Assembly (NCBI GenBank): GCA_963664815.2
Contig: CAXXHB010000003.1
Span: forward strand, 2,080,001 to 2,144,000
Direction of reading: 5' to 3'
DNA: 64,000 nt
Source of the DNA: Spirochaetota bacterium
Lineage (GTDB): Bacteria; Spirochaetota; UBA4802; UBA5550
The notes beneath the pieces were generated by a model. That model was not told the origin of the DNA. It worked only from the letters and a program-made list of their open reading frames with translations, and made no database searches. The translations under genes and the position numbers were made by a program. Shown here in pieces: positions 2,236 to 38,994 of this stretch; positions within the stretch are counted from its first letter, which is position 1; every line of letters begins with the position of its first letter.

Positions 2236-2336
2236 GCATAATTGACGTTAAGCTTTCGCTTCGCACATCTCCGGACTCAACGTATCAGAAATTTTGTCCA
2301 GCTCTCCGGCGCCGTCGCTTAACTATGCAATTATTG
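2236..2336. repeat. Spacer element C (attC-like hairpin), copy 1
   Basis: GCATAAT-GTTAAGC ... CCGG...CCGG ... GCTTAAC-ATTATTG imperfect palindrome, homologous to five other copies. Confidence 0.7.
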
Positions 2337-2470
2337 TATGTATTGTATTGTGATATTGTTACATCTCTGTTAAGTCCCTCTGCAGATGTTTCCGGTTTGG
2401 TTATTGTTATTGTTCCTGCTCCTATTGTGGCCAGGTTTGTCTGTCTGTTGTCTGTGTAGCCGTAGTTTAA
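2336..2470 (-). pseudogene. cdiA trunk fragment (LNYGYTDNRQ...SQYNTY)
   Basis: Near-identical to the cdiA trunk at ~20070-20203. Confidence 0.85.
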
Positions 2471-2703
2471 GGGCGTGACACTGACGACCTTAAATATCAT
2501 TTGGCGTAATGTTTTACGCCCCTAAATGTTGTTAATATTTTTTATTATATAATAAATGATTATTTCACATTCGTCAGTTCCGGGCTTTCCGTTTGTATAA
2601 AACGGCCAATCTGTTGATTTCTATTTACTCTTTATTGATTGCCGTTTTATATCGCTGCAATCCCTCACGCGGTGTGCTTTTATATTGTTGGTTTTCAAGG
2701 AAC
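2468..2703. repeat. Spacer element A (inverted REP-like pair + long hairpin), copy 1
   Basis: GGGCGTGACA...TGTTTTACGCCC followed by CGGGCTTTCCG-TATAAAACGGC...GCCGTTTTATA-CGCTGCAATCCCTCACGCG. Confidence 0.85.
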
Positions 2704-2817
2704 TTAAGTCATTAGTTGATAAATTAAAAAAGTACTACTCACAAATTATATTTTCTATAGTTGGACTTTAGCGAAATTCCGTGACTTGTTGTGTTAATTG
2801 ATTCACATTAAAACTTT

Positions 2818-3129
2818 TTATTTTACTTTTATCAAGTTAATTATAGCACTAATCGCCAAATAAGAAAAAAATATTATTAACAACAATGCCAATATGTCTT
2901 CATAATTAGTAAACTTTCGAGAACCCAACATTAAAATTATAATAATTGCAAATAATTTATTATACCATTTTGTTTCAACAATAGGAGCTTTTTCAATTTT
3001 TTCAATTTTTAACAAATCACCTTTTTTTTTTGCATTAAAAAATTTTATAAAAAACAAAATAAGTGTAATAATCATCGAAAAAAATAAAACTACCTCTGAT
3101 ACTAACAATATATTTTTTAAACTAATCAT
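2818..3129 (-). CDS. Putative membrane immunity protein (identical to 30024-30335)
   Basis: Three hydrophobic segments, overlaps the stop of a toxin-tip fragment, same translation as 30024-30335. Confidence 0.75.
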   Translation of the reverse strand: MISLKNILLVSEVVLFFSMIITLILFFIKFFNAKKKGDLLKIEKIEKAPIVETKWYNKLFAIIIILMLGSRKFTNYEDILALLLIIFFSYLAISAIINLIKVK

Positions 3130-3400
3130 TTAACTTGTATCTTTGCACTGACTCAATATACTTTTGCTGTTCAGCTTGTATCAGTGCTTCCGTTCCTTTT
3201 ACAATTTTATAATTATAAACTGGTGTACTAGTAATTGGTTTACTTAATGTAGCTGAAAAATTTGATGTTGAACCACCAGTTTGTATCGAAAAATATTTAT
3301 CTCCAAAATCAATTTCTCCAGGAATATGGTTATATGTAGCACTTAACGAACCAGGATTTCCATTCCCATATCCGAATCCAACAACTCCAGTAACCCACGC
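3122..3400 (-). pseudogene. 3' fragment of the Gly-rich toxin tip at 30328-30606
   Basis: Nucleotide match at offset 27206. Confidence 0.85.
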
Positions 3401-3520
3401 GCCCTATGCTATATGGGGAACTTTCTGTGAAAGTGAACTGAGCTATTGTATGTATCAACATCTGCCTGTACACAATCACATGAAAAAGATTTTTACGGAT
3501 ATCTGGAGAAAGAGATATTT
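3401..3520. repeat. Tail of element C plus degenerate start of element B
   Basis: TATGCTATATGGGGAACTTTCTGTGAAAGTGAACTGA matches the flank after 36832. AACATCTGCCTGTACACAATC at 3457 matches element B. Confidence 0.6.
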
Positions 3521-3664
3521 TTTTTAATATATCAACGAATTTTTTTATACTAACATTTTAATTCCGAATTTATACTCGTATAATCATTAATCAGCGTTCC
3601 TTAATTGGTACACTTCTGTTTAATTTACATTGTTTGTGGCACCGTAAGTAGCAGTATATAATGT

Positions 3665-3976
3665 TTATAATAACTTTCGACTATTTATAATATCATCTAT
3701 AACATTTATACTCCAAAATTTTACTTCTTCAAATGTTGCTTTTAATTCATTATGATGGTAAATAAAAAATTCAATTACATCAAACAAATTATCCTCATAA
3801 TAAAAATCTAACACTACTTCAGAAGTATAACTATTATCATCTGAGTATGTTCTTTTTATTTCTATATTGCCAAATGTCAGACCTACTCTTTTAATTTCTT
3901 CTTTTTTCTGTATCAAGATCTGATTTAGCAAATATATATATTCATTTTCTATATTTAAAATATCTTTATCTTTCAT
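3665..3976 (-). CDS. Putative cytoplasmic immunity protein
   Basis: Small acidic AT-rich ORF overlapping the toxin-tip stop. Confidence 0.7.
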   Translation of the reverse strand: MKDKDILNIENEYIYLLNQILIQKKEEIKRVGLTFGNIEIKRTYSDDNSYTSEVVLDFYYEDNLFDVIEFFIYHHNELKATFEEVKFWSINVIDDIINSRKLL

Positions 3977-6099: not shown

Positions 6100-6111
6100 C
6101 ATGTCCACTCA

Positions 6112-6212
6112 ACATAATTATTTCTGGACGTTCACTACGCACATCGCCGGACTTATCGAACCAGAAACTTTATACATCCACCGGCGACGTCGGTCTAGCT
6201 ACTCAATTATGC
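6112..6212. repeat. Element C (attC-like), copy 2
   Basis: ACATAAT...CGCCGG...CCGGCG...ATTATGC. Confidence 0.7.
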
Positions 6213-6241
6213 AACATGGGGAGTTATTAATTATAGATCGA

Positions 6242-7039: not shown

Positions 7040-7270
7040 ATGGGCGTGACACTGACGATCTTGAATATCATTTGTCGTAATGCATTACGCCTTTTCATGT
7101 TGTTATTATTTATAATAAATAAATGTTTATTTCACATTCGTCAGGTCCGGGCTTTCCGCTTGTATAAAACGGCCAATCTGTTGATTTTCATTTAACTATT
7201 TATTGATTGCCGTTTTATATCGCTGCAATCCCTCACGCGGTGTGACATTAAATTGTTGGTTTTTAAGGAA
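7040..7270. repeat. Element A, copy 2
   Basis: Same REP-like pair and hairpin as 2468-2703. Confidence 0.85.
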
Positions 7271-9337: not shown

Positions 9338-9459
9338 AACATCTGCCCGTATACAATCCTGAGAAAACGGTTTTTCACTGTATATAATATAAAAAAATTA
9401 CTTTCAAAGATCAATAATTAACTGATTCAGAATTATAGAACAGATCAATAAAATATCAA
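9338..9459 (-). promoter_or_regulatory. Element B with TTGATA-N16-TATAAT (9459-9432)
   Basis: Repeat copy. Confidence 0.7.
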
Positions 9460-9471
9460 TATGTCAACTCA

Positions 9472-9570
9472 ACATAATTATTGCCAGATGTTCACTACAC
9501 ACTTCGCCGACTCGATGTATCAGAAACTTTATCCAACCACCGGCGACGTAATCAAGCTACTCAATTATTG
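9472..9570. repeat. Element C (attC-like), copy 3
   Basis: ACATAAT...ATTATTG with internal CGCCG/CGGCG stem. Confidence 0.65.
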
Positions 9571-9644
9571 CAAAATGAGAAACTTTTCTGGAATTGTTTT
9601 CCATTACTCACCCAGTGTTGAAGAATTTTTTTGTTCAATATTTA

Positions 9645-14640: not shown

Positions 14641-15048
14641 TTATAATTTATCAATTTCCATTTCAGAAAAAAATAAATGAAATGGAACTTTTTCTTTAGA
14701 CCAATAATCTACAACAGTTAACCAACTTTCTATTAATTTACCAGCTGTCATCGGACATCTTTGCCATATTTTTTTTGAATTAAGTATAACTAATATCAAT
14801 CCCTCTTTTAATTCAAGCCAGTCAAGATCTCGTAGGCATTCATCCAATGCATCCCAATTTTTCCCAAAATAATCAGGAAATTTCATTACATTTGCAATTG
14901 AATTAAATAGATCTTTATCATTTTCTATAGAATTATTATCAATTATTAAAATATTAAAATTATTATAATTCTCTTTTAAATAATTATTTATATTATCAGT
15001 TGTAAAATGAATACAGTCATACAAATATTTTTCTAATTTATTTATCAT
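14641..15048 (-). CDS. Barstar-family immunity protein
   Basis: FPDYFGKNWDALDECLRDL barstar signature. Confidence 0.92.
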   Translation of the reverse strand: MINKLEKYLYDCIHFTTDNINNYLKENYNNFNILIIDNNSIENDKDLFNSIANVMKFPDYFGKNWDALDECLRDLDWLELKEGLILVILNSKKIWQRCPMTAGKLIESWLTVVDYWSKEKVPFHLFFSEMEIDKL

Positions 15049-15050
15049 TT

Positions 15051-17849
15051 TTATTTTTTCTTTGGATTTATTTGTATAAAATTTTCATAGTGGTCATCAG
15101 TATAATATGTATTACCACTATTTTGATCTACTAAAATTCTACGAGTTCCTCTATTAGATGCGCCTGGTGTATTAACTGTATATTCTCTATAATCACCATC
15201 AGCTGGTAATTTTTTTTTGTCATTTCTAAAAAGAGTTCCATCTTTTTTATAACAAAAGTTATCTCCTTGCTCAATTCTATCAAGAGTTTTATTAATTTCA
15301 GTCAAGCGATCTGAATCTTTAAATGGAAGATTTCTTTCCACAAGGTTAGCAGCATCTTCCGTTTCATTAACAATTTGTTTTTCTACCTTTCCAAAAACAT
15401 TTCCTGCAGCTTCAGAAAGCCCTACGTCAGCAACACTTATATGTTCAGGTATATTGTCTGCTGCTTCCTTAAACACTACACCTAAAGCTAAATTGAATGC
15501 CTGCTTCAACGTACTATCAGAATTTCCAGCGTCTGCAATTGATTCAATCGAGTTTTCAGTTAATTTGTCTTTAACTATACGTAATAGTTTTGCATCAGGA
15601 GAATTGGAATCAGTATTATCAATCCCCATTGTATTAACTGTTCCAGAAAGATTGACAACATTATTTGCTATCTCATTTCCCTGCTGTATCTCCGCATCTC
15701 TTAAACTTGAATTTACCGCCAGCTGCTTAGCATAAGCTATCTCCGCCCTTTCCTCCGCAAACCTAACTTTAATTGCATATGCCGCATCAGGATCAAGCTT
15801 TTCAAGCAGCGCTATCTTGGCATTTATTACCAGTGCACCATCTTTTGTATATGTGTCAAGAATATCCTGCTTCAGATTATTTGCTACTTCTTTGGTTCTT
15901 TCTTTAATTGCATTCTTTTTATCGCACTGTTCTTCATCTGTCAATGGTTCTCCGACAGCTTTTTTTAACTCATAATAATCAAGCTTCTCCTGCGCACTTA
16001 CAGGTTTCCCGTTTTCAACCTTCTTCTCGTATTCATCCATTGTCTGGTATGATGATACATTTTTATTTTCTGTATAGTGGTCAAATTTTAACAGGTTCTC
16101 AGTCTTCTCTATTGTTGTTTCAATTTCCTTATCTATCTTATCTGCTGTTTTATCTGCTTCTTTTAATCCATCTTTCAATGCATCCACTGTATTATTTAAA
16201 GTCTTTTCCCTGTCGTTTATCAGTTCTACTGTCGCCGTATCTACCGTAACTCCGCCTTTCAGTCCTCCGCTGTATGTATTGTATTGTGATATTGTTACAT
16301 CTCTGTTAAGTCCCTCTTCCGATGTTTCCGGTTTGGTTATTGTTATTGTTCCTGCTCCTATTGTTGCCAGGTTTGTCTGTCTGTTGTCTGTGTAGCCGTA
16401 GTTTAAGCTTGAACTGTACGTATTTTCTGTTGGTTTGAAGCTGCCGCCTGCGCTTCCACCTGCATTGAAAGATACGTCCTTGTCCTTTATGTTGCTGAAC
16501 TCGAGGCTTCCGGTTGTAAGTGTCAGGTTATCTGTTGTTGATGCTATTACTGCACCTTTAAGGGTTGTCTTGTCTTCAACGTCTACGTTTACTGTCCCGC
16601 CGGTTAGGGATGTCTGTTCTGTTACCCAGCTTTTCTTCCCCGTGGAGAAGTTTGCGTTTACTCCGGCATTTCCCGATACGTTTTCGCCTGTTACACTTAC
16701 TCCACCGCTTGCGCCTATGGTCTGCGAGCTGTTTTTGCTCTTATCCTGCAGTGATTGTACCACAAGGGAGCCGTTTACATCAAGGTCAAGTTCGTTTTTC
16801 GCCTTTACCACTCCGCCGATTACGGTTGTGTCTTCGCTGCTCTTTATTTTTATGTTGTTTCCGCTTAAATGTGCGTTGGTATATGTTTTGCTTTCGCTAT
16901 CTGTCTCCGTGCTGTCTGCTGATGCATTAACTCCAATTGCTCCCGATGTTCCGAAACTTACCTTCATGTTGGCATGTTTCTTATCTTCGCTGCTGCTCTC
17001 TCTGTTCTCCGCCGCGCTTATCTCCACATTCTCTGCGTCAAGGGTTATATCCTCACCGGCTGCCACGCTGCTCCCCTTTACCTCCGCTTTGCTCCCCGCT
17101 GTTACGGTAAAGCTCCCTCCGGTTTTTATTGTCGATGCCTTTGCAGTTGTGCTTTCCGATGTCGATTTTGTTTTTGTGGCGTCTATTTCAAACTGGGCAT
17201 CTCCGCTGAAGCCGAATGTCTCTGCAGATCCCGCCGCCCCCGCTGCGCTTTGCAGCAGTGCCGCTGTCTTTGCTACCACGTTCTCCCCGCAGAGCGCTAT
17301 ATTCGCAATGTAAAAGGCCTCCTGCTCTCTTATTGAATCCAGATCATCCTGGTCTATAAGGTTGTTTTTATGGTCATCTTCCGCTTTCTTCAGGCTCTCC
17401 CTGTATTTCTCATAATCATTCTTTGCCTTTACAACTGCTTCCTTTGCCTCTACCAATGCCTTTGTTGCGTATGCCACATCAGTTGCGGCATTCTTTCCAC
17501 CCACTGAAAATTCCACGCTTCCGTGAGTCTCTTCTGCTGTATGGCTTGTCTTCTCTTCTGTTGTCTTTATACTTACGTTTTCTGCCGCCGTAAGGGTTAC
17601 ATCTCCACCGGCATTTATCTCAGATCCAGCTACTGTTATATTCTTTCCGCTGTTTACCGTAAGGTCTTCCGATACATTAAGTTTGGATGAGCTCTGTGTC
17701 TCCCTGTCTGTCCTCTCCTTTACACTGTCGTAGCTCCCCCCTGCAAGCGTTACAGAAGCTCTCCCCTGGTCATAGTCAAAGGCGTTTTTGGGGTTGGTAA
17801 ACAGGTCCATGTTTATCCCCATTGTGGTCTTTTCATGGATGCTGTATTC
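15051..17849 (-). pseudogene. Long orphan CdiA with barnase/RNase Sa-like tip (ORF 15051-17822)
   Basis: FRN...LP...YREYTV.TPG..NRGTRRI...YYTDDHYENF; ~700 aa near-identical to the cdiA trunk; no TPS domain. Confidence 0.88.
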
Positions 17850-18847: not shown

Positions 18848-21800
18848 TTATTCGGATAAATATCCCTTAGTATTTCCGATATTTCGTGTATAAGTAGGAT
18901 AATATCCTCCTGATGACCAACCCAGGCCAGTACCGAAATCAACGCCTATAGTTTTTCCTGAATATGATCTTTCGTAATTAACTGAAGCTGAAGTGCCTGG
19001 AATAGATAAGGTATAATTATTAGAAAATTGAAGCATATCATCATATGCATTATTCATATTTTCAATTTTTTCGCCCTGTGTTGTTTTCATTGTCTCATAA
19101 ACACCTGCAGATTGCACATATGCAACTGGATAATCAGTAGTTTTATCAGAAATTAAGTCTTGATTACCAACAACAGCAGTAGCATTATATGTAGCATAAC
19201 CCATACTATCAACAGAATTAAGTGCATCATGAATAAGGTTTCCTACTAATGGCCCAACAACTGGCATTGTTACTGTATAAGATAAACCTATCACTTGTTT
19301 TATTAATGAATCTTGGCTATTATCGACCTGCAACATAACTCCTCCTTCAATTCCTCCACTCAAAGCCATTCCTGGTCTTCCATATGTTGCATTAGCACCA
19401 ATTCCATATGTTTTATAAACTATTGATTTTTGATTATCTTCTTCTTGCTGTTCAACTATTTCTCTAATATTTGTAAGTGTTTGCATTGACTGGTTATAAA
19501 TTTCATCAGAACTATCTTTCGCCTGAGCTAAATTATTCGCCGCCCTCTCCTTCGCGAACTTAACCTCAATCGCATGTGCCGCATCAGGGTCAATCTCTTT
19601 AAGCAGCGCTATCTTGGCATTTATTACAACCGCAGTATCTTTCGTATATGTATCAAGAATATCCTTTGACAGACTATTTGATAGCTCCTGCTTTACAGTT
19701 TTGTAAGCATTCAGCATATCCATCTGCTCATCGGGGCTCAGTGCTTCTCCGACAAGGTTTTTTGATCCGTAATATGCAAGTGTCTCTGATGCACTTACAG
19801 GTTTCCCGTTTTCAACCTTCTTCTCGTATTCATCCATTGTCTGGAATGATGATACATTTTTATCTTCTGTATAGTGGTCAAATTTTAACAGGTTCTCAGT
19901 CTTCTCAATTGTTGTTTCAATTTCCTTATCTACCTTCTTCGCTGTTTTCTCTGCTTCAGTTAATCCACTTTCCAATGCACCCACTGTATCATATATAGTC
20001 TTTTCCCTGTCTTTTATCAGTTCTACTGTTGCGGTATCTACCGTAACTCCGCCTTTCAGTCCTCCGCTGTATGTATTGTATTGTGATATTGTTACATCTC
20101 TGTTAAGTCCCTCTGCCGATGTTTCCGGTTTGGTTATTGTTATTGTTCCTGCTCCTATTGTGGCCAGGTTTGTCTGTCTGTTGTCTGTGTAGCCGTAGTT
20201 TAAGCTTGAACTGTACGTATTTTCTGTTGGTTTGAAGCTGCCGCTTGCGCTTCCACCTGCATTGAAAGATACGTCCTTGTCCTTTATGTTGCTGAACTCA
20301 AGGCTTCCGGTTGTAAGTGTCAGGTTATCTGTTGTTGATGCTATTACTGCCCCTCTTAGGGTTGTCTTGTCTTCAACGTCTACGTTTACTGTCCCGCCGG
20401 TTAGGGATGTCTGTTCTGTTACCCAGCTTTTCTTCCCCGTGGAGAAGTTTGCGTTTACTCCGGCATTTCCCGATACGTTTTCGCCTGTTACACTTACTCC
20501 CCCGCTTGCGCCTATGGTCTGCGAGCTGTTTTTACTTTTATCCTGCAGTGATTGTACCACAAGGGAACCATTTACATCAAGGTCAAGCTCGTTTTTCGCC
20601 TTTACCACTCCGCCGATTACTGTTGTGTCTTCGCTGCTCTTTATTTTTATGTTGTTTCCGCTTAAATGTGCGTTGGTATATGTTTTGCTTTCGCTATCTG
20701 TCTCCGTGCTGTCTGCTGATGCATTAACTCCAATTGCTCCCGATGTTCCGAAACTTACCTTCATGTTGGCATGTTTCTTATCTTCGCTGCTGCTCTCTCT
20801 GTTCTCCGCCGCGCTTATCTCCACATTCTCTGCGTCAAGGGTTATATCCTCACCGGCTGCCACGCTGCTCCCCTTTACCTCCGCTTTGCTCCCCGCTGTT
20901 ACAGTAAAGCTCCCTCCGGTTTTTATTGTCGATGCCTTTGCAGTTGTGCTTTCCGATGTCGATTTTGTTTTTGTGGCGTCTATTTCAAACTGGGCATCTC
21001 CGCTGAAGCCGAATGTCCCTGCAGATCCCGCCGCCCCCGCTGCGCTTTGCAGCAGCGCTGCTGTCTTTGCAACCACGTTCTCCCCGCAGAGCGCTATATT
21101 CGCAATGTAAAAGGCCTCCTGCTCTCTTATCGAATCCAGATCATCCTGGTCTATAAGGTTGTTTTTATGGTCATCTTCCGCTTTCTTCAGGCTCTCCCTG
21201 TATTTCTCATAATCATTCTTTGCCTTTACAACTGCTTCCTTTGCCTCTACCAGAGCCTTTGTTGCGTATGCCACATCCGTTGCGGCATTCTTGCCCCCAA
21301 ACGAAAATTCCACGCTTCCGTGAGTCTCTTCTGCTGTATGGCTTGTCTTCTCTTCTGTTGTCTTTATACTTACGTTTTCTGCCGCCGTAAGGGTTACATC
21401 TCCACCGGTATTTATCTCAGATCCAGCTACTGTTATATTCTTTCCGCTGTTTACCGTAAGGTCTTCCGATACATTAAGTTTTGATGAGCTCTGTGTCTCC
21501 CTGTCTGTCCTCTCCTTTACACTGTCGTAGCTCCCCCCTGCAAGCGTTACTGACGCTCTCCCCTGGTCATAGTCAAAGGCGTTTTTGGGGTTGGTAAACA
21601 GGTCCATGTTTATCCCCATTGTGGTCTTTTCATGGATGCTGTATTCGTAGCTTGTCTCTTTTGCGCTTGTTTCTGTAAAACTGCCGGTTGTGTCAAATTC
21701 CGCAATGCCGGCGTTTATGGCGCTCCCCTCCATCAGAAAATCGCCGCCTGTGGATGCTTTAAGTTTTCCGGCAGTTATTGCAGATCCCGCGGCTGTTGTT

Positions 21801-24800
21801 GCTCCGTTTCCGGCTGCGTCTATCGATTTGGCGTACAGATCGCCGTCTGTTGTCAATACTCCGCTCTTCTCTGTTTTATGCTCTTCCGCATGTTCGTTGT
21901 ATGCGGCCCTTACATTTAAACTGCCGCCGGTGGTTATATCGGCTTCGCCCCCTATATTAAGTGTGCTCCCTGTTATATCGGTATCTTTCCCCGATTTTGA
22001 TGCGTACTGCCCTGCTATGTCAATGGCAGATCCGCTGACTGTCTTGTCCGACACCATGTCGCTTTTCTTCTCGGAGCCGTATAATGCCCCACCTGTGGCA
22101 AAACCTGTCTTTTCCGTTGTCCTGCTGTAGTATGATTCGTCATGAACTGCTATTATCCTTTCGGTACCTTCAGCGTCAAGTTCGGCATCTCCACCCGATT
22201 TTATATCGCTTCCAACTATATTTATGTCGTTTCCGCTCTTTACCTTAAGGTTTCCCCCTGTTGTGAAACCGGAGCTTACAACGGTCTTTGTACTCATATC
22301 CACTGTTGTGGTTTCACTGCTGAAGGTTTTATTCTCTTTCTTTGTGCCGTGATAACTACTGGTATCATAGTCGTTAAGAAGATTAAAATTACCCGCTGTA
22401 GTTATATCGGCGCTTCCTGTAATGTCAGCTTTGCTCCCGACAAAGTTTATATCCCTTCCCGATGCAAGTACAAGGTTTCCCCCTGATGCAAGCGTGGAAC
22501 CGGCAGATTCGGAGGTAGTTGATATTCCGCTTGTATCGTCAGCTTCCTTATAAACGGTATTATTGATCTTAATCGTTTCAAAATTTATATTCCCGCCGGC
22601 TTCAATTACCGCGTCACCCCCCGATTTTACTTCTGCCCCCCTGTTTGTAAAATTACCCCCGGCGTTTACAGTCAGTTTTCCCCCTGCTTCTATGGATGCT
22701 GCTGCACCAACGGTTGTATTTACATAGTCCGGATTATATACTGCAGTGCTTACTTCTGTTTCATTTATAATATTTCCATTTACTGCTGTAAGGGTAAGGG
22801 AACCGCCGCTTTTTATTGTTCCCCCGCTATTTGTTATATTGCCATTCGCGGTTATTTCCACAGAGCTTTTCCCTTCAATCCTGCCGGCATTGCCTACATT
22901 GCCATCAGCATTGATATTAACCGAATTACCCGCTATTGTTGAACTGCTGTTCTTTGAAAATCCCTCTATTATATGTTCAGGTATATATATCTTCGGTACA
23001 AGGACTTTCTGACCCATTACCTCATCTTCCACATACCATATAATTGGCTGCTGCAGCCTGTTTATCTGGTCTTTGCTCAGTTCAACTCCCACTGCAAGTT
23101 CAAGATCCCTGTAGGCGCTGGCTGCGTTGTCAAGAAGCCATGTCATCTGCTCCTGGTCGCTCTTTATACTCTCGTCAAGGTACCTGTTTGAAGTGGCTTT
23201 AAGGATGGATTCCGTAACAAGCTTCTGCTCATAAAACGCATCACCGAGAAATTTCACATCCTTTTCAGGGTTAAATCCTATCCTGGTCAGCAGGTACTGT
23301 GAACCCTTAAGCTTTTCTACATCTATATATTCATTTCTTGTTTCTATAAGGTAGGTCGAACCTGGAGCGCTGTTTACTGTAAAAAGAGCATTTCCGTCAT
23401 TGTTTATATTTATATTTTGAGAAAGATCAATGGCTCCATTATTTGCAATTGCTTCATATGCCTTATCAACAGTATTTCCGGATAGTACAACTCCCGGCTT
23501 ATTCTCCTCTACAAATCCATTGTTAACCGCACCGCCTGTTAAAGTAACCTTTCCGCCGGCGCTTATAATGGCTTTATCATTGGATACTACATTAATGTAT
23601 CCGGCTTCCCACACTTCCGAATAATCATCCCCTTCATCATATTCTGTCCAGCCCCAGTGGCAAAATTTTTTTGTCCAGTGATGTTTATGCCCCATATAAT
23701 TAAGCTGCGCTACATATTCATTCCTGTTGTTTGTTTCATTTATAAGAGTGGCTGCATTTATTGTAATATCAGCTCCTGCGGATATTACGCTTCCATGGTT
23801 TTTAACCTCTCCGGATGTTATGTCCAGATTTCCACCCGCCTTAATAGTGGAATAATCAGTATGCATCAGAGACTGGGAGAGCACATATTGATCCATTACA
23901 GCCCAGCATTCATCCCCATAGTCCCCTACATGAACAAATGTTGTGGTATACCCGTAGGTATCCTCCCCCGTATTTTCAAGCCTGCCGTCTGCTCCAAGGT
24001 TTATTGACATGTTTTTTTCAGATTCAATATTTGAGGAATAATTATATATACTGTTCCCTGTTGGAGCGGTACCTGTAATTGTCATATCTCCCATAGAATA
24101 TATATAGCTCTCATTAAGGCCGTTCCTGGTATTTTTAAGGGAACCTGTCTCAATAGTCATCTTGTTGCCTGAAAATATCAGGGCTCCGCTGTTAAGAATT
24201 GTATCTGCGTGTATAGCAAGATCATTTCCCGATGATATTTCTTTATAATTACTTATATTTTTCCCATTTATAGCCATATCTGATGCGCTGCTTATAATGC
24301 CGCTGTTGACAATATTACCGCCGGATGATATTGACACCCCCTGTTTTGAAACAATGCTGCTTCCGCTGCTGTTGACTATATTACCGGAGGCGTTTATCCC
24401 TATTGCTCCGTTCATTGAGAGGTTAATGTTGTTTGTAAAGTCAGCAGAGGATATGCCGAGGTGCTTCTCTGCATATATGGAAGATATTCCGCTGTTCAGG
24501 GTAACGTTTCCGGTCATATCTATCCCGATATTACCGGCAGACTTTATCTCTCCGCCAAGTATGTCAAGGCTGCCGTTACCATGTATGCTTATTGTGCCGT
24601 TTTCACCAGCTGTTGTAATACTCCCGCCGTTATTGTCGAGAGTTCCTGTTGCGGCTATATCTATATTCCCCGAGGAGGCTATTTTCCCCCCGTTATTGTC
24701 AATTAACCCTGCCAGCGATATATCCTTAAGGGCCTTTATGCTCCCCCTGTTGGTTATATTTTTAGCGGAATAGCCTGCATTCTCCATGGCAAAGGTATTG

Positions 24801-25768
24801 CCGTTCTGTTTTATATCACCTGAAATGGAGGTTACTGTTACATTTTTCGCAGACTGTGCATTTTTCAGTTCAATATTGCCGTCAGCCGATATTTTTATAT
24901 CCGATACATCGGCAACCATATCACCGTCCGATTTTACGCCAACGCCCTTCTCATTGCTTACCACTGTAATTCGCCCTGCATATATGCTTCCAAGGGCGGA
25001 GGCGTCAATCCCTATCTCAGGTTTCGGTTCGCCTGTATCCTTCTGTGTAAATGTTTTGTCATTATAGTTATAAAACCCGGTTCCCGTATTTATGCTTACA
25101 TCCTTTCCCCATATGCCGCCGTTAAGGGAGGCTACCCTTGATACTATTTCAAAATAGTTCACCTGCCCGGCATCTATCCCCTTCCCCTCAACTATCAGTG
25201 AACCGCCGCTTATATCTATGCCTTTAAAGACATCGGAATCGAAGACAGCCCTCCCTGTGGCCAGGGTTACCCTGGGCATATTGATAAATGAGGCACCGTT
25301 GCACATTATACCGTTGGGGTTTACAAGGACAAATTCCGCAGATTTACCAAACATCTCCGTGGCTCCCAGCAGGCTGCTTCTTCCGGTGCCCGTCACTTCG
25401 TTTATTACAAGAGAGGCGGCGACGCCGCTGCTCTGGTAATTGGGATTTCCATACATGGCGCCCCCGAGAACAGACACACCCATATTTACGGAGTTGTTGA
25501 GTATTACGCCGCCGGTACCTACATTATAGTTCTGAAACATGTTGTGCGAAACGCCGTTTGAGTTTGCTGTTGCGAGGTTTACTACTGTTACGCCGTTCTG
25601 TGCGGTATCCAGAGTGGGCTTGTTCGCCGCCGAGGTATCGACAGTTATATCCGCAGCGTATAATGGAGGCAGTGCAAAGGTACACATCTCACCTGCCAGC
25701 AGAAGTACAAGTAATTGCTTTAAGATCTCTTTTAACCTTTTCATAACACTTATCTTCCCGGGTAACAT
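18848..25768 (-). CDS. cdiA: CdiA-like TpsA filamentous toxin, copy 2 (Gly-rich/hydrophobic tip)
   Basis: Signal peptide, TPS domain (NPNGI), FHA repeats, FLGDAFYEQKLV and VLVPKIY motifs, variable C-terminus. Confidence 0.9.
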   Translation of the reverse strand: MLPGKISVMKRLKEILKQLLVLLLAGEMCTFALPPLYAADITVDTSAANKPTLDTAQNGVTVVNLATANSNGVSHNMFQNYNVGTGGVILNNSVNMGVSVLGGAMYGNPNYQSSGVAASLVINEVTGTGRSSLLGATEMFGKSAEFVLVNPNGIMCNGASFINMPRVTLATGRAVFDSDVFKGIDISGGSLIVEGKGIDAGQVNYFEIVSRVASLNGGIWGKDVSINTGTGFYNYNDKTFTQKDTGEPKPEIGIDASALGSIYAGRITVVSNEKGVGVKSDGDMVADVSDIKISADGNIELKNAQSAKNVTVTSISGDIKQNGNTFAMENAGYSAKNITNRGSIKALKDISLAGLIDNNGGKIASSGNIDIAATGTLDNNGGSITTAGENGTISIHGNGSLDILGGEIKSAGNIGIDMTGNVTLNSGISSIYAEKHLGISSADFTNNINLSMNGAIGINASGNIVNSSGSSIVSKQGVSISSGGNIVNSGIISSASDMAINGKNISNYKEISSGNDLAIHADTILNSGALIFSGNKMTIETGSLKNTRNGLNESYIYSMGDMTITGTAPTGNSIYNYSSNIESEKNMSINLGADGRLENTGEDTYGYTTTFVHVGDYGDECWAVMDQYVLSQSLMHTDYSTIKAGGNLDITSGEVKNHGSVISAGADITINAATLINETNNRNEYVAQLNYMGHKHHWTKKFCHWGWTEYDEGDDYSEVWEAGYINVVSNDKAIISAGGKVTLTGGAVNNGFVEENKPGVVLSGNTVDKAYEAIANNGAIDLSQNININNDGNALFTVNSAPGSTYLIETRNEYIDVEKLKGSQYLLTRIGFNPEKDVKFLGDAFYEQKLVTESILKATSNRYLDESIKSDQEQMTWLLDNAASAYRDLELAVGVELSKDQINRLQQPIIWYVEDEVMGQKVLVPKIYIPEHIIEGFSKNSSSTIAGNSVNINADGNVGNAGRIEGKSSVEITANGNITNSGGTIKSGGSLTLTAVNGNIINETEVSTAVYNPDYVNTTVGAAASIEAGGKLTVNAGGNFTNRGAEVKSGGDAVIEAGGNINFETIKINNTVYKEADDTSGISTTSESAGSTLASGGNLVLASGRDINFVGSKADITGSADITTAGNFNLLNDYDTSSYHGTKKENKTFSSETTTVDMSTKTVVSSGFTTGGNLKVKSGNDINIVGSDIKSGGDAELDAEGTERIIAVHDESYYSRTTEKTGFATGGALYGSEKKSDMVSDKTVSGSAIDIAGQYASKSGKDTDITGSTLNIGGEADITTGGSLNVRAAYNEHAEEHKTEKSGVLTTDGDLYAKSIDAAGNGATTAAGSAITAGKLKASTGGDFLMEGSAINAGIAEFDTTGSFTETSAKETSYEYSIHEKTTMGINMDLFTNPKNAFDYDQGRASVTLAGGSYDSVKERTDRETQSSSKLNVSEDLTVNSGKNITVAGSEINTGGDVTLTAAENVSIKTTEEKTSHTAEETHGSVEFSFGGKNAATDVAYATKALVEAKEAVVKAKNDYEKYRESLKKAEDDHKNNLIDQDDLDSIREQEAFYIANIALCGENVVAKTAALLQSAAGAAGSAGTFGFSGDAQFEIDATKTKSTSESTTAKASTIKTGGSFTVTAGSKAEVKGSSVAAGEDITLDAENVEISAAENRESSSEDKKHANMKVSFGTSGAIGVNASADSTETDSESKTYTNAHLSGNNIKIKSSEDTTVIGGVVKAKNELDLDVNGSLVVQSLQDKSKNSSQTIGASGGVSVTGENVSGNAGVNANFSTGKKSWVTEQTSLTGGTVNVDVEDKTTLRGAVIASTTDNLTLTTGSLEFSNIKDKDVSFNAGGSASGSFKPTENTYSSSLNYGYTDNRQTNLATIGAGTITITKPETSAEGLNRDVTISQYNTYSGGLKGGVTVDTATVELIKDREKTIYDTVGALESGLTEAEKTAKKVDKEIETTIEKTENLLKFDHYTEDKNVSSFQTMDEYEKKVENGKPVSASETLAYYGSKNLVGEALSPDEQMDMLNAYKTVKQELSNSLSKDILDTYTKDTAVVINAKIALLKEIDPDAAHAIEVKFAKERAANNLAQAKDSSDEIYNQSMQTLTNIREIVEQQEEDNQKSIVYKTYGIGANATYGRPGMALSGGIEGGVMLQVDNSQDSLIKQVIGLSYTVTMPVVGPLVGNLIHDALNSVDSMGYATYNATAVVGNQDLISDKTTDYPVAYVQSAGVYETMKTTQGEKIENMNNAYDDMLQFSNNYTLSIPGTSASVNYERSYSGKTIGVDFGTGLGWSSGGYYPTYTRNIGNTKGYLSE

Positions 25769-27675: not shown

Positions 27676-27717
27676 TTATTCCTCCAATAGCTGTTACTAA
27701 ACTCTCTCTTCCGCACC

Positions 27718-27843
27718 CCCGAACTTCAGCGATAAAATGGATTATGCCGCAGCGCTCCGCGACGTACCCTCAATCTCATCGGGCGGGGAGCATCCCGCCA
27801 TTGTTCATTCGGCGCACATAATCCATTTTATCGAAAGTTCGGG
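27718..27843. repeat. 126-bp palindrome with AAC/GTT ends (attC-like)
   Basis: CCCGAAC-N5-CGATAAAATGGATTATG ... CATAATCCATTTTATCG-N3-GTTCGGG. Confidence 0.6.
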
Positions 27844-33092: not shown

Positions 33093-33149
33093 TAATTAAC
33101 TGATTCAGAATTATAGAACAGATCAATAAAATGTCAATATGTCCACTCA

Positions 33150-33249
33150 GCATAATTATTGCCAGATGTTCACTACGCACATCGCCGGACTTATTGAACC
33201 AGAAACTTTATACAGTCACCGGCGACGTCGTCAAGCTACTCAATTATAC
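33150..33249. repeat. Element C (attC-like), copy 4
   Basis: GCATAAT...TCGCCGG...CCGGCGA...ATTATAC. Confidence 0.7.
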
Positions 33250-33303
33250 GATATGAGAAACTTGTTGTTTTAGTACACTGAATTTGCATACGGGAATTAT
33301 TTG

Positions 33304-33834
33304 TTATGTATCAAACTCTATATTAACTTTTGGGGCATTTTTCATAACAAATTTTTTTTCTTTATATAATTTATAAGCTTCATCACCAATATAAAAATAA
33401 AAGCTGCTATTTTTACTTTGCTTTAAATTTTTTTTAATCCATTTCTGATATTCATTATATTGCTTATTAAGCCATTCAGGTTTTTTTATTAACTCTCCTT
33501 TTTCATCATAATATTTTGTTTGAAACCAAATTCGACCATTCCATAATTCGTTATCATTAACTATCTCACATCGTGAAAACTCGATAACCTCTGACAATGT
33601 ATCATCCACAAAACCGTTTTTCTTTATAAATATTTTCGAATCAGTTTTCATGATAAAAATTTTTCCGATTGTTGTTGAATCTAGTCTTTTACCTGAAATA
33701 TAACTTACTAGTTCCCCTATTTCATTTACTTTATTTCCACTTTTATCTACTATCACATCATTGTTCTTCTTAATAAATTCAATAAAAGATAGTTCATCAT
33801 TGGCTGTCATAAAAAAACTAATTTGCTTTCCCAT
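33304..33834 (-). CDS. Putative cytoplasmic immunity protein
   Basis: Starts 11 bp after the nuclease-tip stop; no signal peptide. Confidence 0.75.
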   Translation of the reverse strand: MGKQISFFMTANDELSFIEFIKKNNDVIVDKSGNKVNEIGELVSYISGKRLDSTTIGKIFIMKTDSKIFIKKNGFVDDTLSEVIEFSRCEIVNDNELWNGRIWFQTKYYDEKGELIKKPEWLNKQYNEYQKWIKKNLKQSKNSSFYFYIGDEAYKLYKEKKFVMKNAPKVNIEFDT

Positions 33835-33845
33835 ATTCAGTATCC

Positions 33846-36728
33846 TTATTTATTATATGGATAGAATTTAACTCCATATCCAGCATTTTCAAAATCCTGA
33901 ATAGCTTTTGCTTCTCTTGAAACGGGAAGTCCACCTTTTGTTTCTTTCCCCACTTGAATGATAAATTTTTCCCCTGTTTCCTCATTTTTTACTAAAGCAT
34001 CCCCCCATCTTGATTCTTTAAACCCACCGGGTGTTTCTACTTTATATTCTGTTTTAACAGTATATCCATTCTTTTCAAAATCTGTTACAACTTCAGAAAT
34101 TTTCTCTTGATGAAGTGGACCACCTGCTTTTCCATATGGATTAGGAACTGCTTTAGCTACATCATCCGCTTTCCCTGTTACACCCAAAACATTCTCAGCA
34201 CTTGTAATACCGGAAACTGATAATCCTTTATTTATTAAAGCATTCTCAATCAATTCACCTGCAATGAAACCAGCCACTTCAGCAGGGTGTTCGGTTACCT
34301 TCTCTTTTACATTTTCTGCTACATTGCCTAAATAGTTTCCTGCACCCTGTTCACTTATATTATCTGCTAAACCTGTTACAGTCTCAACTCTTTTATTAAA
34401 TTCATAAGCACTTCCCAGTGCAGGATTTATCAGGTATAATCCACCTGTTGTTAATGATTCTTTTATTTCATCCTTAGTCGGTAATGAAGATAAAAGTCCT
34501 TCACCAAATTCACCTGCGTAATACGATAAATCCTTACCTTTTTGTCCTTCTAAATATTCATTAGTCTTCGATCTGTCCAGTTCTTTAAAGTCGGCAAGAT
34601 ACTTAGCCTCTTTTGTTTTCTCATTCGCCGCCCTTTCCTTCGCGAACTTAACCTCAATTGCATGTGCCGCATCAGGGTCAATCTCTTTAAGCAGCGCTAT
34701 CTTGGCATTTATTACAACCGCAGTATCTTTCGTATATGTATCAAGAATATCCTTTGACAGACTATTTGATAGCTCCTGCTTTACAGTTTTGTAAGCATTC
34801 AGCATATCCATCTGCTCATCGGGGCTCAGTGCTTCTCCGACAAGGTTTTTTGATCCGTAATATGCAAGTGTCTCTGATGCACTTACAGGTTTCCCGTTTT
34901 CAACCTTCTTCTCGTATTCATCCATTGTCTGGAATGATGATACATTTTTATCTTCTGTATAGTGGTCAAATTTTAACAGGTTCTCAGTCTTCTCAATTGT
35001 TGTTTCAATTTCCTGATCTACCTTCTTCGCTGTTTTCTCTGCTTCAGTTAATCCACTTTCCAATGCACCCACTGTATCATATAAAGTCTTTTCCCTGTCT
35101 TTTATCAGTTCTACTGTTGCGGTATCTACCGTAACTCCGCCTTTAAGTCCTCCGCTGTATGTATTGTATTGTGATATTGTTACATCTCTGTTAAGTCCCT
35201 CTGCCGATGTTTCCGGTTTGGTTATTGTTATTGTTCCTGCTCCTATTGTGGCCAGGTTTGTCTGTCTGTTGTCTGTGTAGCCGTAGTTTAAGCTTGAACT
35301 GTACGTATTTTCTGTTGGTTTGAAGCTGCCGCTTGCGCTTCCACCTGCATTGAAAGATACGTCCTTGTCCTTTATGTTGCTGAACTCAAGGCTTCCGGTT
35401 GTAAGTGTCAGGTTATCTGTTGTTGATGCTATTACTGCCCCTCTTAGGGTTGTCTTGTCTTCAACGTCTACGTTTACTGTCCCGCCGGTTAGGGATGTCT
35501 GTTCTGTTACCCAGCTTTTCTTCCCCGTGGAGAAGTTTGCGTTTACTCCGGCATTTCCCGATACGTTTTCGCCTGTTACACTTACTCCCCCGCTTGCGCC
35601 TATGGTCTGCGAGCTGTTTTTACTTTTATCCTGCAGTGATTGTACCACAAGGGAACCATTTACATCAAGGTCAAGCTCGTTTTTCGCCTTTACCACTCCG
35701 CCGATTACTGTTGTGTCTTCGCTGCTCTTTATTTTTATGTTGTTTCCGCTTAAATGTGCGTTGGTATATGTTTTGCTTTCGCTATCTGTCTCCGTGCTGT
35801 CTGCTGATGCATTAACTCCAATTGCTCCCGATGTTCCGAAACTTACCTTCATGTTGGCATGTTTCTTATCTTCGCTGCTGCTCTCTCTGTTCTCCGCCGC
35901 GCTTATCTCCACATTCTCTGCGTCAAGGGTTATATCCTCACCGGCTGCCACGCTGCTCCCCTTTACCTCCGCTTTGCTCCCCGCTGTTACAGTAAAGCTC
36001 CCTCCGGTTTTTATTGTCGATGCCTTTGCAGTTGTGCTTTCCGATGTCGATTTTGTTTTTGTGGCGTCTATTTCAAACTGGGCATCTCCGCTGAAGCCGA
36101 ATGCCTCTGCAGATCCCGCCGCCCCCGCTGCGCTTTGCAGCAGCGCCGCTGTCTTTGCTACCACGTTCTCCCCGCAGAGCGCTATATTCGCAATGTAAAA
36201 GGCCTCCTGCTCTCTTATTGAATCCAGATCATCCTGGTCTATAAGGTTGTTTTTATGGTCATCTTCTGCTTTCTTCAGGCTCTCCCTGTATTTCTCATAA
36301 TCATTCTTTGCCTTTACAACTGCTTCCTTTGCCTCTACCAGAGCCTTTGTTGCGTATGCTACATCCGTTGCGGCATTCTTGCCCCCAAACGAAAATTCCA
36401 CGCTTCCGTGAGTCTCTTCTGCTGTATGGCTTGTCTTCTCTTCTGTTGTCTTTATGCTTACGTTTTCTGCCGCCGTAAGGGTTACATCTCCACCGGTATT
36501 TATCTCAGATCCCGCTACTGTTATATTCTTTCCGCTGTTTACCGTAAGATCTTCCGATACATTAAGTTTTGATGAGCTCTGTGTCTCCCTGTCTGTCCTC
36601 TCCTTTACGCTGTCGTAGCTCCCCCCTGCAAGCGTTACTGACGCTCTCCCCTGGTCATAGTCAAAGGCGTTTTTGGGGTTGGTAAACAGGTCCATGTTTA
36701 TCCCCATTGTGGTCTTTTCAATATTCAT
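33846..36728 (-). pseudogene. Long orphan CdiA with PD-(D/E)XK-type nuclease tip
   Basis: PNPYGKAGGPLHQ...TE...RWGD...IQVGK...RE..AI.D; trunk identical to cdiA from EKTTMG. Confidence 0.8.
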
Positions 36729-36837
36729 ATCGCATAATTATTACTAATCATTCACTTTCTTACATCGCCGGACTCACAGTAACAGAAAATTTGTCCAATC
36801 CCCGGCGGTTTTGTTCAACTACTCAATTATGCGATAT
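36727..36837. repeat. Element C (attC-like), copy 5
   Basis: Perfect 13-bp terminal inverted repeat ATATCGCATAATT / AATTATGCGATAT. Confidence 0.75.
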
Positions 36838-36951
36838 AGGGAATTTTTTGTGTCAGTGAACTGAACTTCTATACAAAACCTTTTTTTTTATTCATCAAAA
36901 CATTTTTTTTAGTAAACTTACAGCTTGAAAACTTTTGCAGTACAAATAAAT

Positions 36952-37266
36952 TTATTTAATAAGAATCATACTGATTAGTATTCTGAAATTAACAAAAACA
37001 AAACCCAATAAAAGTAAGATCTTCAATTCATCTTCATAATTCCAACCTATTTTATTTGTTATCCATATTACTATCAATATTGTGACTATAAAATATACCA
37101 CATAATTTGATGAATTATTAAAAACACTCTTAAGTTTATTAACTTTATCCCAATCATTGTTTTTTTGTGCATTATACCTTTTTATAAAAAACATTACTAT
37201 ATACATTACAGTTGTAGCAATTATTAATAAAAATTCCAAATTAATTATACTATGCGATCTAAGCAT
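36952..37266 (-). CDS. Putative 3-TM immunity protein, paralogue of 30024-30335
   Basis: Shared FFIK..NA.K..D..K and NYED.L..LLL patterns; RBS GGAG. Confidence 0.75.
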   Translation of the reverse strand: MLRSHSIINLEFLLIIATTVMYIVMFFIKRYNAQKNNDWDKVNKLKSVFNNSSNYVVYFIVTILIVIWITNKIGWNYEDELKILLLLGFVFVNFRILISMILIK

Positions 37267-37355
37267 AAATCTCCATTATTAAATATATTCTGTGCTGTTT
37301 AAAATAAATATCAGCTTTCTAAAAAAGGTTTTTTGAATTAAAATCTTTTAAAAAT

Positions 37356-38762
37356 TTAATCTTCGTTGACTCCGGATGTACCTTTTTTTAATCTATTTTT
37401 TACAATCGAATCAATAAATTGTTTTTGTTCAGATTTAATTAACTCCCCAGTACCATTTACACTTTTATCCACAACTTGTGTGCCTGTAGTGATTGTAGGT
37501 GTACCAGCAGTATATGTTAATGATGCTTCAGATGTCGTGATCCCTCCTCTAATTCCGATTTTCTGTGTTCCAAAATCTACTTCGACAATGACATTTTCTA
37601 AGCTTAAAGAAACGGTTCCGAAAGGATTTCCATCTCCATAACTTACGCCTGCTGTTATTGAACCTATTGTTTTTGGACCTATTCCAACTGTAGGATTAAG
37701 TTTACCTGAAATAGTTGCATCTTTATTAACAGTAAATTCGCCCGTACCACTTAAAGTGAGACCACCTCCTCGTCCATATACGTCTTCTTCTGCAAGAACT
37801 GTAGTAGAAACAACAACGTCTCCCTTCGGTAAAAATTCAATTACTTTGCCTAAGGTAGTTTTTTCTATAGAAGTCTGTACATCGGTTATCAGCCTATCTC
37901 CTTCTTTTAATTTATATGGATATTCAAGCTGAGGATTGTTCTTTAAGAATTTTTCTTTTTCTGTATCAAAATCGGTATTTATACCGAGTGCAACTTTCCT
38001 TTTTACATCTGTTTCAATAAAATCATCAACCAATGTATCACCTTTATCTACACGTTCAGTTATAACATTAACGGTACCTTTTTTGTCATATTCTTCAAAG
38101 GTTTTAGTATAAAGTAATGGTTTAGAACGTGCTACTACTCCACCATCTTCACTTGTATCAAGTTCTTTCGCCTTTTCGCTACCCTTAACCAGTGTATCTG
38201 ATTCAGCATTCGCATTATTCCAGTTAATTACAGCATCATGATTTGTAGTTGTTGAAGCTGTTTCTGAAAACCTGTTCCATAAATTTCCCGCCTGTTCTCC
38301 ACGTGAAGATGCAAGTGTAAGCTGCTGTCCTGCATCAAGGTCCAGCCCATTAGTGGTGTTATCCTTCCTCTGGGCTTCCCAGAAGAGTGATGTAATAATA
38401 TCTCCACCCTTTGATATATCTGTTCCTTCGGTATTCAGATATGTTTCATTATTATTCTGGTCATATGCTGCTGCATATCCATTCATCGCGTTATCTGTTT
38501 TATCTCCCTGATACAGATTTACATGAGATATTTTATCATCCTTAACTCCATCGCTGCTCTGAACAGTTTCAGAAACCTTATTAACCGCTTCTTTCAATGA
38601 TGCCGCATCTTTATCAAGTGCATTATCGAGTTTTTCAGCTAAAGCCTTGTTCTCTGCCAGGGCTGCTATTGTTAATACATCCTTACGGGCATTAATTACA
38701 GCCTCGAGTGTACCCGCGAATCCAAGACCTTCTTTAGCTTTGGTAGTTTCTGTTGCCTCTTC
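37356..38762 (-). pseudogene. Orphan type-B module with LysM-like + Gly-rich tip (ORF 37356-38597)
   Basis: Diverged paralogue of the 30328 tip (VDKGDTL...NPQL..P..LKEGDRL). Confidence 0.7.
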
Positions 38763-38884
38763 AACCTCTGCCCGTATACAATCCTGAGAAAACGGTTTTT
38801 CACTGTATATACTATAAAAAAATTACTTTCAAAGATCAATAATTAACTGATTCAGAATTATAGAACAGATCAATAAAATATCAA
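38763..38884 (-). promoter_or_regulatory. Element B with TTGATA-N16-TATAAT (38884-38857)
   Basis: Repeat copy. Confidence 0.7.
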
Positions 38885-38896
38885 TATGTCAACTCA

Positions 38897-38994
38897 ACAT
38901 AATTGTCGCTAGACGTTCACTACGCACATCGCCGGACTCAGTATCAGAAACTTTATACAGCCCCGGCGATGTCGTTCTAGCTACTCAATTATTC
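38897..38994. repeat. Element C (attC-like), copy 6
   Basis: ACATAAT-N5-CTAGACG...CGTTCTAG-N7-ATTATTC. Confidence 0.7.

Follow-up and report, generated by a model that had tools for sequence, protein, structure and literature searches.

The 64,000-nt stretch of DNA analysed here (hereafter, the window) spans positions 2,080,001 to 2,144,000 of contig CAXXHB010000003.1 from a Spirochaetota bacterium (GenBank assembly GCA_963664815.2). It carries a two-partner secretion/contact-dependent growth inhibition (TPS/CDI) locus that encompasses genes for a TPR protein, a TpsB transporter and two full-length TpsA exoproteins, along with truncated TpsA fragments and orphan toxin-immunity modules. Interspersed with these modules are six copies of a folded palindrome of about 125 nt, which an initial annotation of the window interpreted as attC-like hairpins bounding the modules of an integron-like array. 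Here, we report that this repeat is a new, previously undescribed structured palindromic element that is specific to toxin-immunity modules of Leptospirales-type spirochaetes, describe its fold, distribution and genomic setting, and weigh the possible explanations of its role.

The toxin-immunity arrays and their hairpin element

The genes of the array lie on the minus strand, as do all features of the window described below unless the plus strand is indicated. The TpsB/CdiB-type outer-membrane transporter (46897..48729) contains ShlB, POTRA_2 and POTRA_3 domains. The first full-length TpsA/CdiA-like exoprotein, of 2303 aa (39340..46251), combines a TPS domain with Fil_haemagg_2 repeats and is followed by an open reading frame (ORF) that is the putative immunity gene of this toxin (39045-39332). 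The second full-length exoprotein, of 2306 aa (18848..25768), likewise contains a TPS domain and Fil_haemagg_2; no element comes after its immunity ORF (18242-18844). Two truncated TpsA fragments, of 960 and 923 aa, belong to orphan modules, the former paired with a 176-aa immunity-like ORF (33304..36728) and the latter ending in a barnase-type RNase (PF00545) with a Barstar gene next to it (PF01337, E 3.4e-22; 14641..17822; no element after). A second locus, on another replicon of the same genome (contig C2), encodes a third TpsA, of 2173 aa, with orphan modules after it. TpsB, TpsA, C-terminal toxins with immunity genes, and orphans, that is, the features of a TPS/CDI array, are all present; toxin activity and contact dependence are predictions from the sequence. 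The orphans are of two kinds, one that starts with homology to TpsA residues ~1854-2100 and another that lacks detectable homology to the resident TpsA; taken together, the orphan fragments homologous to TpsA cover residues 1375-2102.

The six palindromes of the window align over ~100-125 nt with a mean column identity of 75%, the boxes CATAATT and CAATTAT being invariant, and are the genuine homologous repeats that the initial annotation had taken them to be. A profile built from these six copies (nhmmer) detected 10 copies in the 5.2-Mb, three-contig genome (E 8.8e-33 to 2.4e-13), with the next-best matches at E 0.094 and 1.5. Instead of being scattered through the genome after ordinary genes, all 10 reside in two TPS/CDI toxin arrays, six in the window and four at C2:472885-482613, and the sequence of the outer arms occurs nowhere in the genome except within the elements. 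A comparison of the whole window with Rfam at gathering scores, and one of positions 1-50000 that admitted E-values up to 5, matched no family. Two covariance models were employed, R1, derived from the ten copies of this genome, and R2, derived from 39 hits. Both placed all window copies on the minus, that is, the gene strand. With filters off, no seventh or degenerate copy was found in the window, the next match (16.8 bits) being the antisense of one of the copies.

The copy at 38887..39008 (129.2 bits with R1 and 109.3 bits with R2) starts 36 nt past the stop codon that ends the TpsA1 immunity ORF; a promoter leader takes the place of its right outer arm, and its DNA fold has a z-score of -4.27 in the sense and -3.89 in the antisense orientation. 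A copy of a divergent subclass (36722..36846) abuts the truncated TpsA fragment that starts at about TpsA residue 1380, and after the last copy of the upper sub-array (33140..33263) come a partial leader and, at +87, a terminator-like hairpin. The copy at 9462..9585 lies 59 nt past a 202-aa immunity-like ORF, with the leader next; the family of this ORF also precedes the element in four genomes or contigs. At 6102..6226, the middle stem is degenerate and the DNA fold is no better than that of shuffled sequences (z -0.56). The terminal copy (2226..2350) is joined to a 136-bp remnant of the TpsA pretoxin region, with an intrinsic terminator next to it (inverted repeat at 2175-2208). A same-strand ORF ends 15-105 nt before every window copy except this last one, in agreement with the earlier observation that five copies closely follow the stop of an immunity gene. 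The view that the hairpins bound the modules stands for six module ends out of ~12 in the window and fails for the others. No element was found at the junctions 17873-18242, 14358-14641, 13629-13741 and 11291-11741 or after 30024, nor were degenerate remnants detected at the element-less junctions by alignment or by the covariance model with filters off.

The same array contains a second long palindrome, overlooked in the initial annotation, which we denote type X. It is located between modules at 27715..27843, has perfect arms of 17 nt, and is unrelated in sequence to the element. Over 129 nt, the window copy has 90% identity with one located directly upstream of the element in a related genome (G005); the G005 copy folds at -64.1 kcal/mol. 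Of the 64 genomes of the family, 11 contain type X. In two of these, G005 and G004, it stands in tandem with the element, and a third, G073, has both on one contig. With type X beside the element, long hairpins at the ends of modules look like a wider trait of these islands.

Several other features of the arrays were noted. The orphan toxin ORFs at 12261-13565, 30328-31758, 37356-38822 and 8633-9397 share an N-terminal region that has no BLASTP similarity to the three resident TpsA, and their frame stays open on the 5' side of every start codon, so that they look like pieces of a toxin gene missing from this genome. A conserved 121-aa ORF without a Pfam match lies just upstream of every full-length tpsA (46332-46697, 25849-26214 and C2:464047-464412). 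Pieces of insertion sequences (IS) bound and split the window array at 10-1370 (+), 31957-33065 (+) and 52616-54142 (-); they comprise an IS21-type pair (Mu-transposase C-terminal domain and IstB), two DDE transposase fragments and a DDE_Tnp_1 transposase. Judged by cumulative GC skew, the terminus of contig C3 is near 1.9-2.04 Mb, within ~180 kb of the window, and the genes of both arrays, on C3 and C2, appear co-directional with replication by the same measure.

Fold, strand and genomic setting

Beyond this genome, five of seven further members of the genus gave BLAST matches to the element, compared with none of 53 genomes of other genera. The covariance models reached further: R1 detected it in 13 of the 64 genomes of the family, and R2 in 18 of 122 genomes of the order, namely, 15 of 64 in the family (this genome counted) and three of 12 in a second family, with 1-10 copies per genome. 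A pattern scan of species-representative genomes yielded six contigs, five of them titled as Spirochaetota or Leptospirales metagenome-assembled genomes (MAGs); the remaining one (L077), in a MAG titled Lachnospiraceae, failed confirmation by the covariance model. A scan of metagenomes added 15 further contigs, all model-confirmed.

The element folds into a rod that consists of an outer stem (17-18 bp when intact), a small internal loop, a middle stem of 7-8 bp, and a GC-rich inner stem of 9-10 bp. The inner stem carries a bulge of 11-13 nt on its 3' side and ends in an apical loop, both conserved in sequence within the long type of the element; a short-loop subtype retains the outer and middle stems and has a different apex. 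The three-stem layout with asymmetric spacers given in the initial annotation (outer box, unpaired spacer, inner stem and apical part) is recognizable in this structure, with the internal loop parting the outer and middle stems. In five relatives with an intact outer stem of 17-18 bp, the sense fold has an energy of -35 to -54.6 kcal/mol and a z-score of -2.9 to -5.9.

Covariation supports this fold. The middle stem is formed by at least five unrelated complementary pairs (GCTAGAC/GTCTAGC, GTTAAGC/GCTTAAC, GCAGCCC/GGGCTGC, GCTATAC/GTATAGC and GGCAGGC/GCCTGCC), and the distal outer stem covaries between genera (CCCC/GGGG versus CTCGC/GCGAG). In the model-fitted alignment, 89.3% of the cells are paired, and compensatory changes are seen in 17 of 25 pairs; covariation amounts to 0.350, compared with a mean of 0.161 for shuffled alignments (none of 500 reaches the observed value) and 0.02-0.06 when the partners are slid. 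A structure-blind MAFFT alignment of 36 long-type copies gave a concordant result, with 80.4% of the cells paired, compensatory changes in 17 of 34 pairs, and a covariation of 0.250, which exceeds the mean of 0.144 of the shuffled alignments (0 of 500 reach it) and the 0.062-0.078 obtained with slid partners; in the middle helix, seven of the eight pairs show compensatory changes in this alignment. The fold is under selection, and the concern raised at the outset that fold or covariation might be missing is dispelled. A candidate pseudoknot between the apical loop and the bulge was rejected, one apparent compensatory change (L058) being contradicted by another sequence (L088). An optional small hairpin with a tandem G-A motif (CCCTGAGC...CGAAGGG) occurs at two positions of the element that differ by lineage, in the bulge (L071, L072, L033 and L035) and in the apical loop (L067); we read such insertions as suggestive of RNA-like evolution.

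The two strands differ in their ability to adopt this structure. G-U cells number 87 on the sense strand, compared with 24 A-C cells, which correspond to G-U on the antisense strand, and wobble pairs occupy fixed positions, with U-G in 27 and G-U in 28 of the 36 sequences. The sense fold is more stable than the antisense fold in all five intact relatives (for example, -54.6 versus -41.5 kcal/mol), and the covariance model assigns 103 bits to the sense and 16.8 bits to the antisense strand. Together, the wobble bias, the fold energies and the model scores indicate that the folded form is that of the gene-sense strand, as RNA or as single-stranded DNA.

The homology between copies begins sharply ~15 nt before the ATAAT box, immediately after unrelated immunity genes, and then spans the palindrome; in 6-7 of the 10 copies, it continues through a leader of ~125 nt into the orphan coding sequence, so that the blocks shared between modules and replicons start at the element and extend through the leader. 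In copies of the leader type, the leader replaces the right outer arm right after ATTATG. It contains a sigma-70-like promoter motif: the two best promoter-like sites in the interval 32900-39400 sit directly downstream of elements, namely, TTGACA-16 nt-TATAAT at 33110..33137 (12 of 12 hexamer matches; the top site) and TTGATA-16 nt-TATAAT at 38857..38884 (11 of 12; the second of 34 sites). A promoter-bearing leader with no element upstream is found at 13570-13629 and 31740-31782. Given that the leader occurs without the element, the two are separable units that meet at a breakpoint; in other genomes, the element is found without the leader. Terminator-like hairpins with a T-run lie 29-87 nt downstream of the element in eight of 33 copies, and within 160 nt in 12 of 33. 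This placement suggests that the element lies inside the transcript and is not the terminator itself.

Across genomes, a same-strand ORF of at least 60 codons ends no more than 250 nt upstream of 46 of 51 assessable copies, and under stricter limits (an ORF of 90 or more codons, separated by no more than 100 nt), 36 of 49 copies have such a neighbour versus 16 of 45 in the opposite orientation. In relatives, the upstream neighbour is mostly a same-strand gene pair resembling a toxin and its immunity gene, with function unassigned; domains and homologies found upstream include ankyrin repeats, an RHS fragment, a C39-like peptidase, DUF3467 and pieces of the TpsA pretoxin region. In several genomes, the gene immediately before the element belongs to one of the same immunity-like families. 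TpsA was detected near the element at two of 20 loci elsewhere by tblastn, and TpsA or pretoxin fragments in seven genomes or contigs by clustering of neighbouring ORFs. A homologous upstream gene in three genera is joined to three different, lineage-specific versions of the hairpin, and in one pair of genomes (G011 and G006), the gene, spacer, outer arms and downstream flank are homologous, with the inner ~85 nt exchanged. A flank motif common to some relatives marks no further palindromes in the genome studied here. In several genomes and metagenome contigs, genes for ParE-type toxins converge on the 3' side of the element (L067 9631-9975, L085 573-1010 and homologues).

Candidate roles and rival explanations

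Membership of the element in an integron is not supported. The R-box heptamers RYYYAAC/GTTRRRY are absent, the invariant boxes being CATAAT(T)/(A)ATTATG. A regular-expression search for complementary RYYYAAC...GTTRRRY pairs returned three places in the window, roughly what is expected by chance according to an estimate made without a computed control, and none in the C2 array; no such pair brackets any of the six window copies, and two of the places, near 2275-2375, join the right half of the middle stem of the 2226-2350 copy to a flanking word. The window encodes no tyrosine recombinase, in line with the statement in the initial annotation that it lacks an integrase, and a search of the genome for intI, proposed there as a check, produced no match above the cut-off (best TIGR02249 score, 220.7; cut-off, 265). 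None of the nine tyrosine-recombinase matches in the genome is in the window or on C2. Within the family, IntI exceeds the cut-off in two of 64 genomes, one of which (G015) has the element, on another contig; 12 of the 13 R1-positive family genomes have no IntI above the cut-off, and no element was found in the 2.8-3.4 kb examined around either intI. The Y1/HUH transposase PF01797 was not found in the genome by a search that was positive in six of 14 control genomes. With the boxes, IntI, strand, bulge, promoter-bearing two-gene modules and HUH all departing from what an integron has, the proposed site-specific capture of modules finds no support (no AAC/GTT, IntI, HUH transposase or adjacent recombinase). 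What survives of the attC-like architecture is the geometry and the joining of lineage-specific hairpins to shared genes.

Some observations on recombinases stand apart from these tests. In G015, the IntI gene (L102, G015:C43, 963-1901; 387 bits) contains one in-frame TGA, and a canonical 60-nt GCCTAAC...GTTAGGC site, unlike the element, lies at 7046-7105, ~5 kb from intI. No hairpin array was seen near XerA-like recombinases. In the genome studied here, a 287-aa XerA-like recombinase has as neighbours duplicated blocks, the longest of 982 bp, and a short array of tandem ~100-140-bp units (C3:3686368-3700560). Tandem pairs of tyrosine recombinases lie 3-5 kb from elements in G084 (L057 18144-19909 and L059 7-1094) and may belong to another mobile element. 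The outer box bears a resemblance to the inner arms of dif sites. The possibility of a dif/Xer system was dropped as uninformative: scored against a dif consensus, the genome yielded one plausible site on C2, near the skew terminus, and none on C3 at up to seven mismatches.

Sequencing data were also inspected. Eight runs are listed, and five of these, from two studies, contain the stretch; four were examined as Logan contigs over 32000-39600 and yielded four joints (38867 to 33203, 33247 to 34159, 36962 to 39012, and 35165 to 38805), several with ends in or beside the repeated element or leader. We take these joints to be repeat-induced ambiguity and not excision products, the loose ends reading like other copies of the same genome. 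The runs with a second organism label contain 60-82% of the sequence words, and one run (X5) has no depth over 37334-37841 and 39112-39365.

The account that we favour, tentatively, is that the element is a sense-strand structure, probably an RNA in the 3' untranslated region (UTR), that closes a module before the next promoter and, as DNA, serves as a passive patch of homology. The element would then be a structured nucleic acid of ~125 nt with the gene-sense strand as its functional form, most likely RNA at the 3' untranslated end of toxin-immunity transcripts, in which the sequence of the middle stem is free to vary provided that pairing is kept. Such a structure could close the module by protecting or processing the 3' end of the immunity message and could insulate this message from the near-consensus promoter that starts the next module, with the conserved unpaired parts forming a putative binding site for some factor. 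On the usual view, homologous recombination within coding sequence both assembles and rearranges orphan toxin-immunity arrays; the element together with the promoter leader makes up a repeated DNA block that might act as a passive crossover patch for homologous recombination and duplication.

A number of findings weigh against this account. Transcription of the element is presumed from its position, no RNA run being listed for the organism; the element has no U-run of its own and no Rfam match, and G-T wobbles with a strand bias would fit a folded single-stranded DNA site equally well. Two of the four window copies that were folded are no better than shuffles (z -0.56 and -0.04; the other two, -4.27 and -2.62), and seven of the 10 copies in the genome lack the right outer arm, lost to the leader; given these weak folds and lost arms, the structure may be decaying in this genome. 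About half of the module ends do without the element, which shows that a module does not need it. As to orientation, the crude ORF measure indicates a moderate bias, the control under the loose limits being high (35 of 45). Finally, lineage-specific hairpins on shared genes and the swap of the inner ~85 nt are hard to explain by a vertically inherited 3' UTR.

These last observations bear most directly on an alternative that we consider unlikely while taking it seriously, namely, a folded single-strand DNA site, comparable to attC or the attP of the CTX phage, at which a non-IntI tyrosine recombinase, of the Xer type or one of the XerA-like enzymes of this genome, would excise, reorder or capture modules. 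The architecture of outer box, unpaired spacer, inner stem and an apex that differs between subtypes fits such a site, as do the parting of leader-type and palindromic-type copies immediately past ATTATG, the cassette-like spacing of 0.7-2.7 kb between copies in relatives, near ParE-type toxin-antitoxin genes, and the probable identity of the sense strand with the lagging-strand template in both arrays, as judged from GC skew and gene direction. A precedent exists in the rAID-1 immunity arrays of Bacteroidales, which are reported to combine integron-like repeats with a XerD-family recombinase (bioRxiv 10.1101/471110). Against this stand, besides the missing AAC/GTT core and IntI, the many module junctions without a site, the sequence conservation of the long bulge and loop, unlike attC, and the lack of interpretable excision junctions in the contig data. 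Moreover, close homologues of a 357-aa XerA-like recombinase are found in genomes both with and without the element, hence no association, and among 37 context sequences that total 418 kb, only two, which come from a single genome, have tyrosine recombinases near elements. A broader version, in which the hairpin and the second palindrome are attachment sites of an IntI-free integron-like system in Leptospirales that takes up and exchanges toxin-immunity modules in cassette form, with gene-sense DNA hairpins, different in each lineage and placed on shared genes, acted upon in trans by a XerA-like or housekeeping recombinase, seems to us slightly less probable still.

Alternatively, the element could be a selfish, non-autonomous palindromic mobile element, akin to miniature inverted-repeat transposable elements (MITE), repetitive extragenic palindromes (REP) or enterobacterial repetitive intergenic consensus (ERIC) sequences, that inserts just downstream of island genes and whose hairpin is kept by transposition or hairpin-templated repair. 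Its outer arms, which resemble terminal inverted repeats of 16-18 nt, its patchy spread over 18 of the 122 genomes of the order, the second palindrome family in the same niche (in tandem with the element in G005 and G004), a conserved short flank repeated on either side of a tandem pair, and the occurrence of the leader with and without the element are all compatible with this idea. We nevertheless regard it as improbable, and identity with a MITE or REP-like element is not supported: the copy number is low (1-10 per genome, with all 10 copies here in two loci), no target-site duplication or empty site was recognised, no parent IS sharing the outer-arm sequence was found in the one genome searched whole, the genome has no Y1/HUH transposase of the RAYT or IS200 type, and the orientation bias relative to the upstream gene together with the strand-specific wobbles suggests selection on one strand. 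The least probable explanation, which we consider very doubtful, is a fold without function, that is, a duplicated module boundary (the leader region) that was spread by homologous recombination and is palindromic by descent. It would account for the contiguity of element and leader in 6-7 of 10 copies, with shared blocks reaching the orphan coding sequence, and for the degraded stems of several copies in this genome. Covariation disfavours it, given the unrelated complementary middle-stem sequences, at least five across genera, and so do the conserved wobble positions and the occurrence of the element without the leader in other genomes.

A covarying, strand-specific hairpin marks the 3' ends of modules across two families of one order, after unrelated gene pairs. 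If the element is an RNA, as in the account we favour, it would be a structured motif not described before, linked to how bacteria express the weapons they use against one another and the matching antidotes, and would offer a way into the question of how immunity genes in silent arrays are kept expressed and insulated. As a DNA site, it would mean that hairpin-based cassette capture was invented a second time, independently of an integrase. Under both readings, the hairpin is an inexpensive marker with which toxin-immunity modules of unknown families can be located in metagenomes and in the genomes of spirochaetes.

Comparison with known systems

REP sequences, which form bacterial interspersed mosaic elements (BIME), and ERIC sequences are extragenic palindromes transcribed with the upstream gene; REP are present in high copy number, dispersed genome-wide, and accompanied by a Y1 (RAYT) transposase. 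The element resembles REP/BIME and ERIC in being a long imperfect palindrome at 3' or intercistronic positions with an orientation bias, and its tandem occurrence with a second palindrome type is reminiscent of BIME mosaics. It differs from all of these in having 10 copies in two loci instead of hundreds, in the absence of a RAYT, and in its tie to toxin-immunity modules.

Integron attC sites, among them long, species-specific chromosomal sites like the Vibrio VCRs, are likewise imperfect palindromes of ~60-140 nt located 3' of genes in one orientation, and the element shares with them a single favoured strand and a lineage-specific sequence joined to varied genes; it also appears to follow their succession of outer box, unpaired spacer and inner stem. 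The features of attC compared here are those given in PMC2727003. The differences are substantial: the element comes without AAC/GTT and without IntI, half of the junctions have no site, its conserved bulge of 11-13 nt contrasts with the two or three single extrahelical bases of attC, and its modules consist of two genes with their own promoter. Furthermore, the element favours the gene-sense strand, whereas the folded strand of attC is the bottom strand, antisense to the cassette gene.

The rAID-1 clusters are arrays of immunity genes against interbacterial toxins with intergenic repeats reminiscent of integrons (bioRxiv 10.1101/471110), and an immunity-gene array combined with repeated intergenic sequences is common to both systems. 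A XerD-family recombinase is conserved at the rAID-1 cluster, in contrast to either array analysed here, where there is none; the phylum, the secretion system and the repeat are all different.

The closest parallel to the gene content of the arrays is provided by orphan cdiA-CT/cdiI arrays (CT, C-terminal toxin region); a full-text search of the literature found no paper linking these with hairpin or attC-like repeats. Both have TpsB, a full-length TpsA, truncated fragments, and pairs of C-terminal toxin and immunity genes, here exemplified by barnase and Barstar, and in both, the orphans share a pretoxin region, corresponding here to TpsA residues ~1854-2100. What sets the spirochaete arrays apart is the hairpin that follows the immunity genes, the shared promoter leader, and a class of orphans without homology to the resident TpsA.

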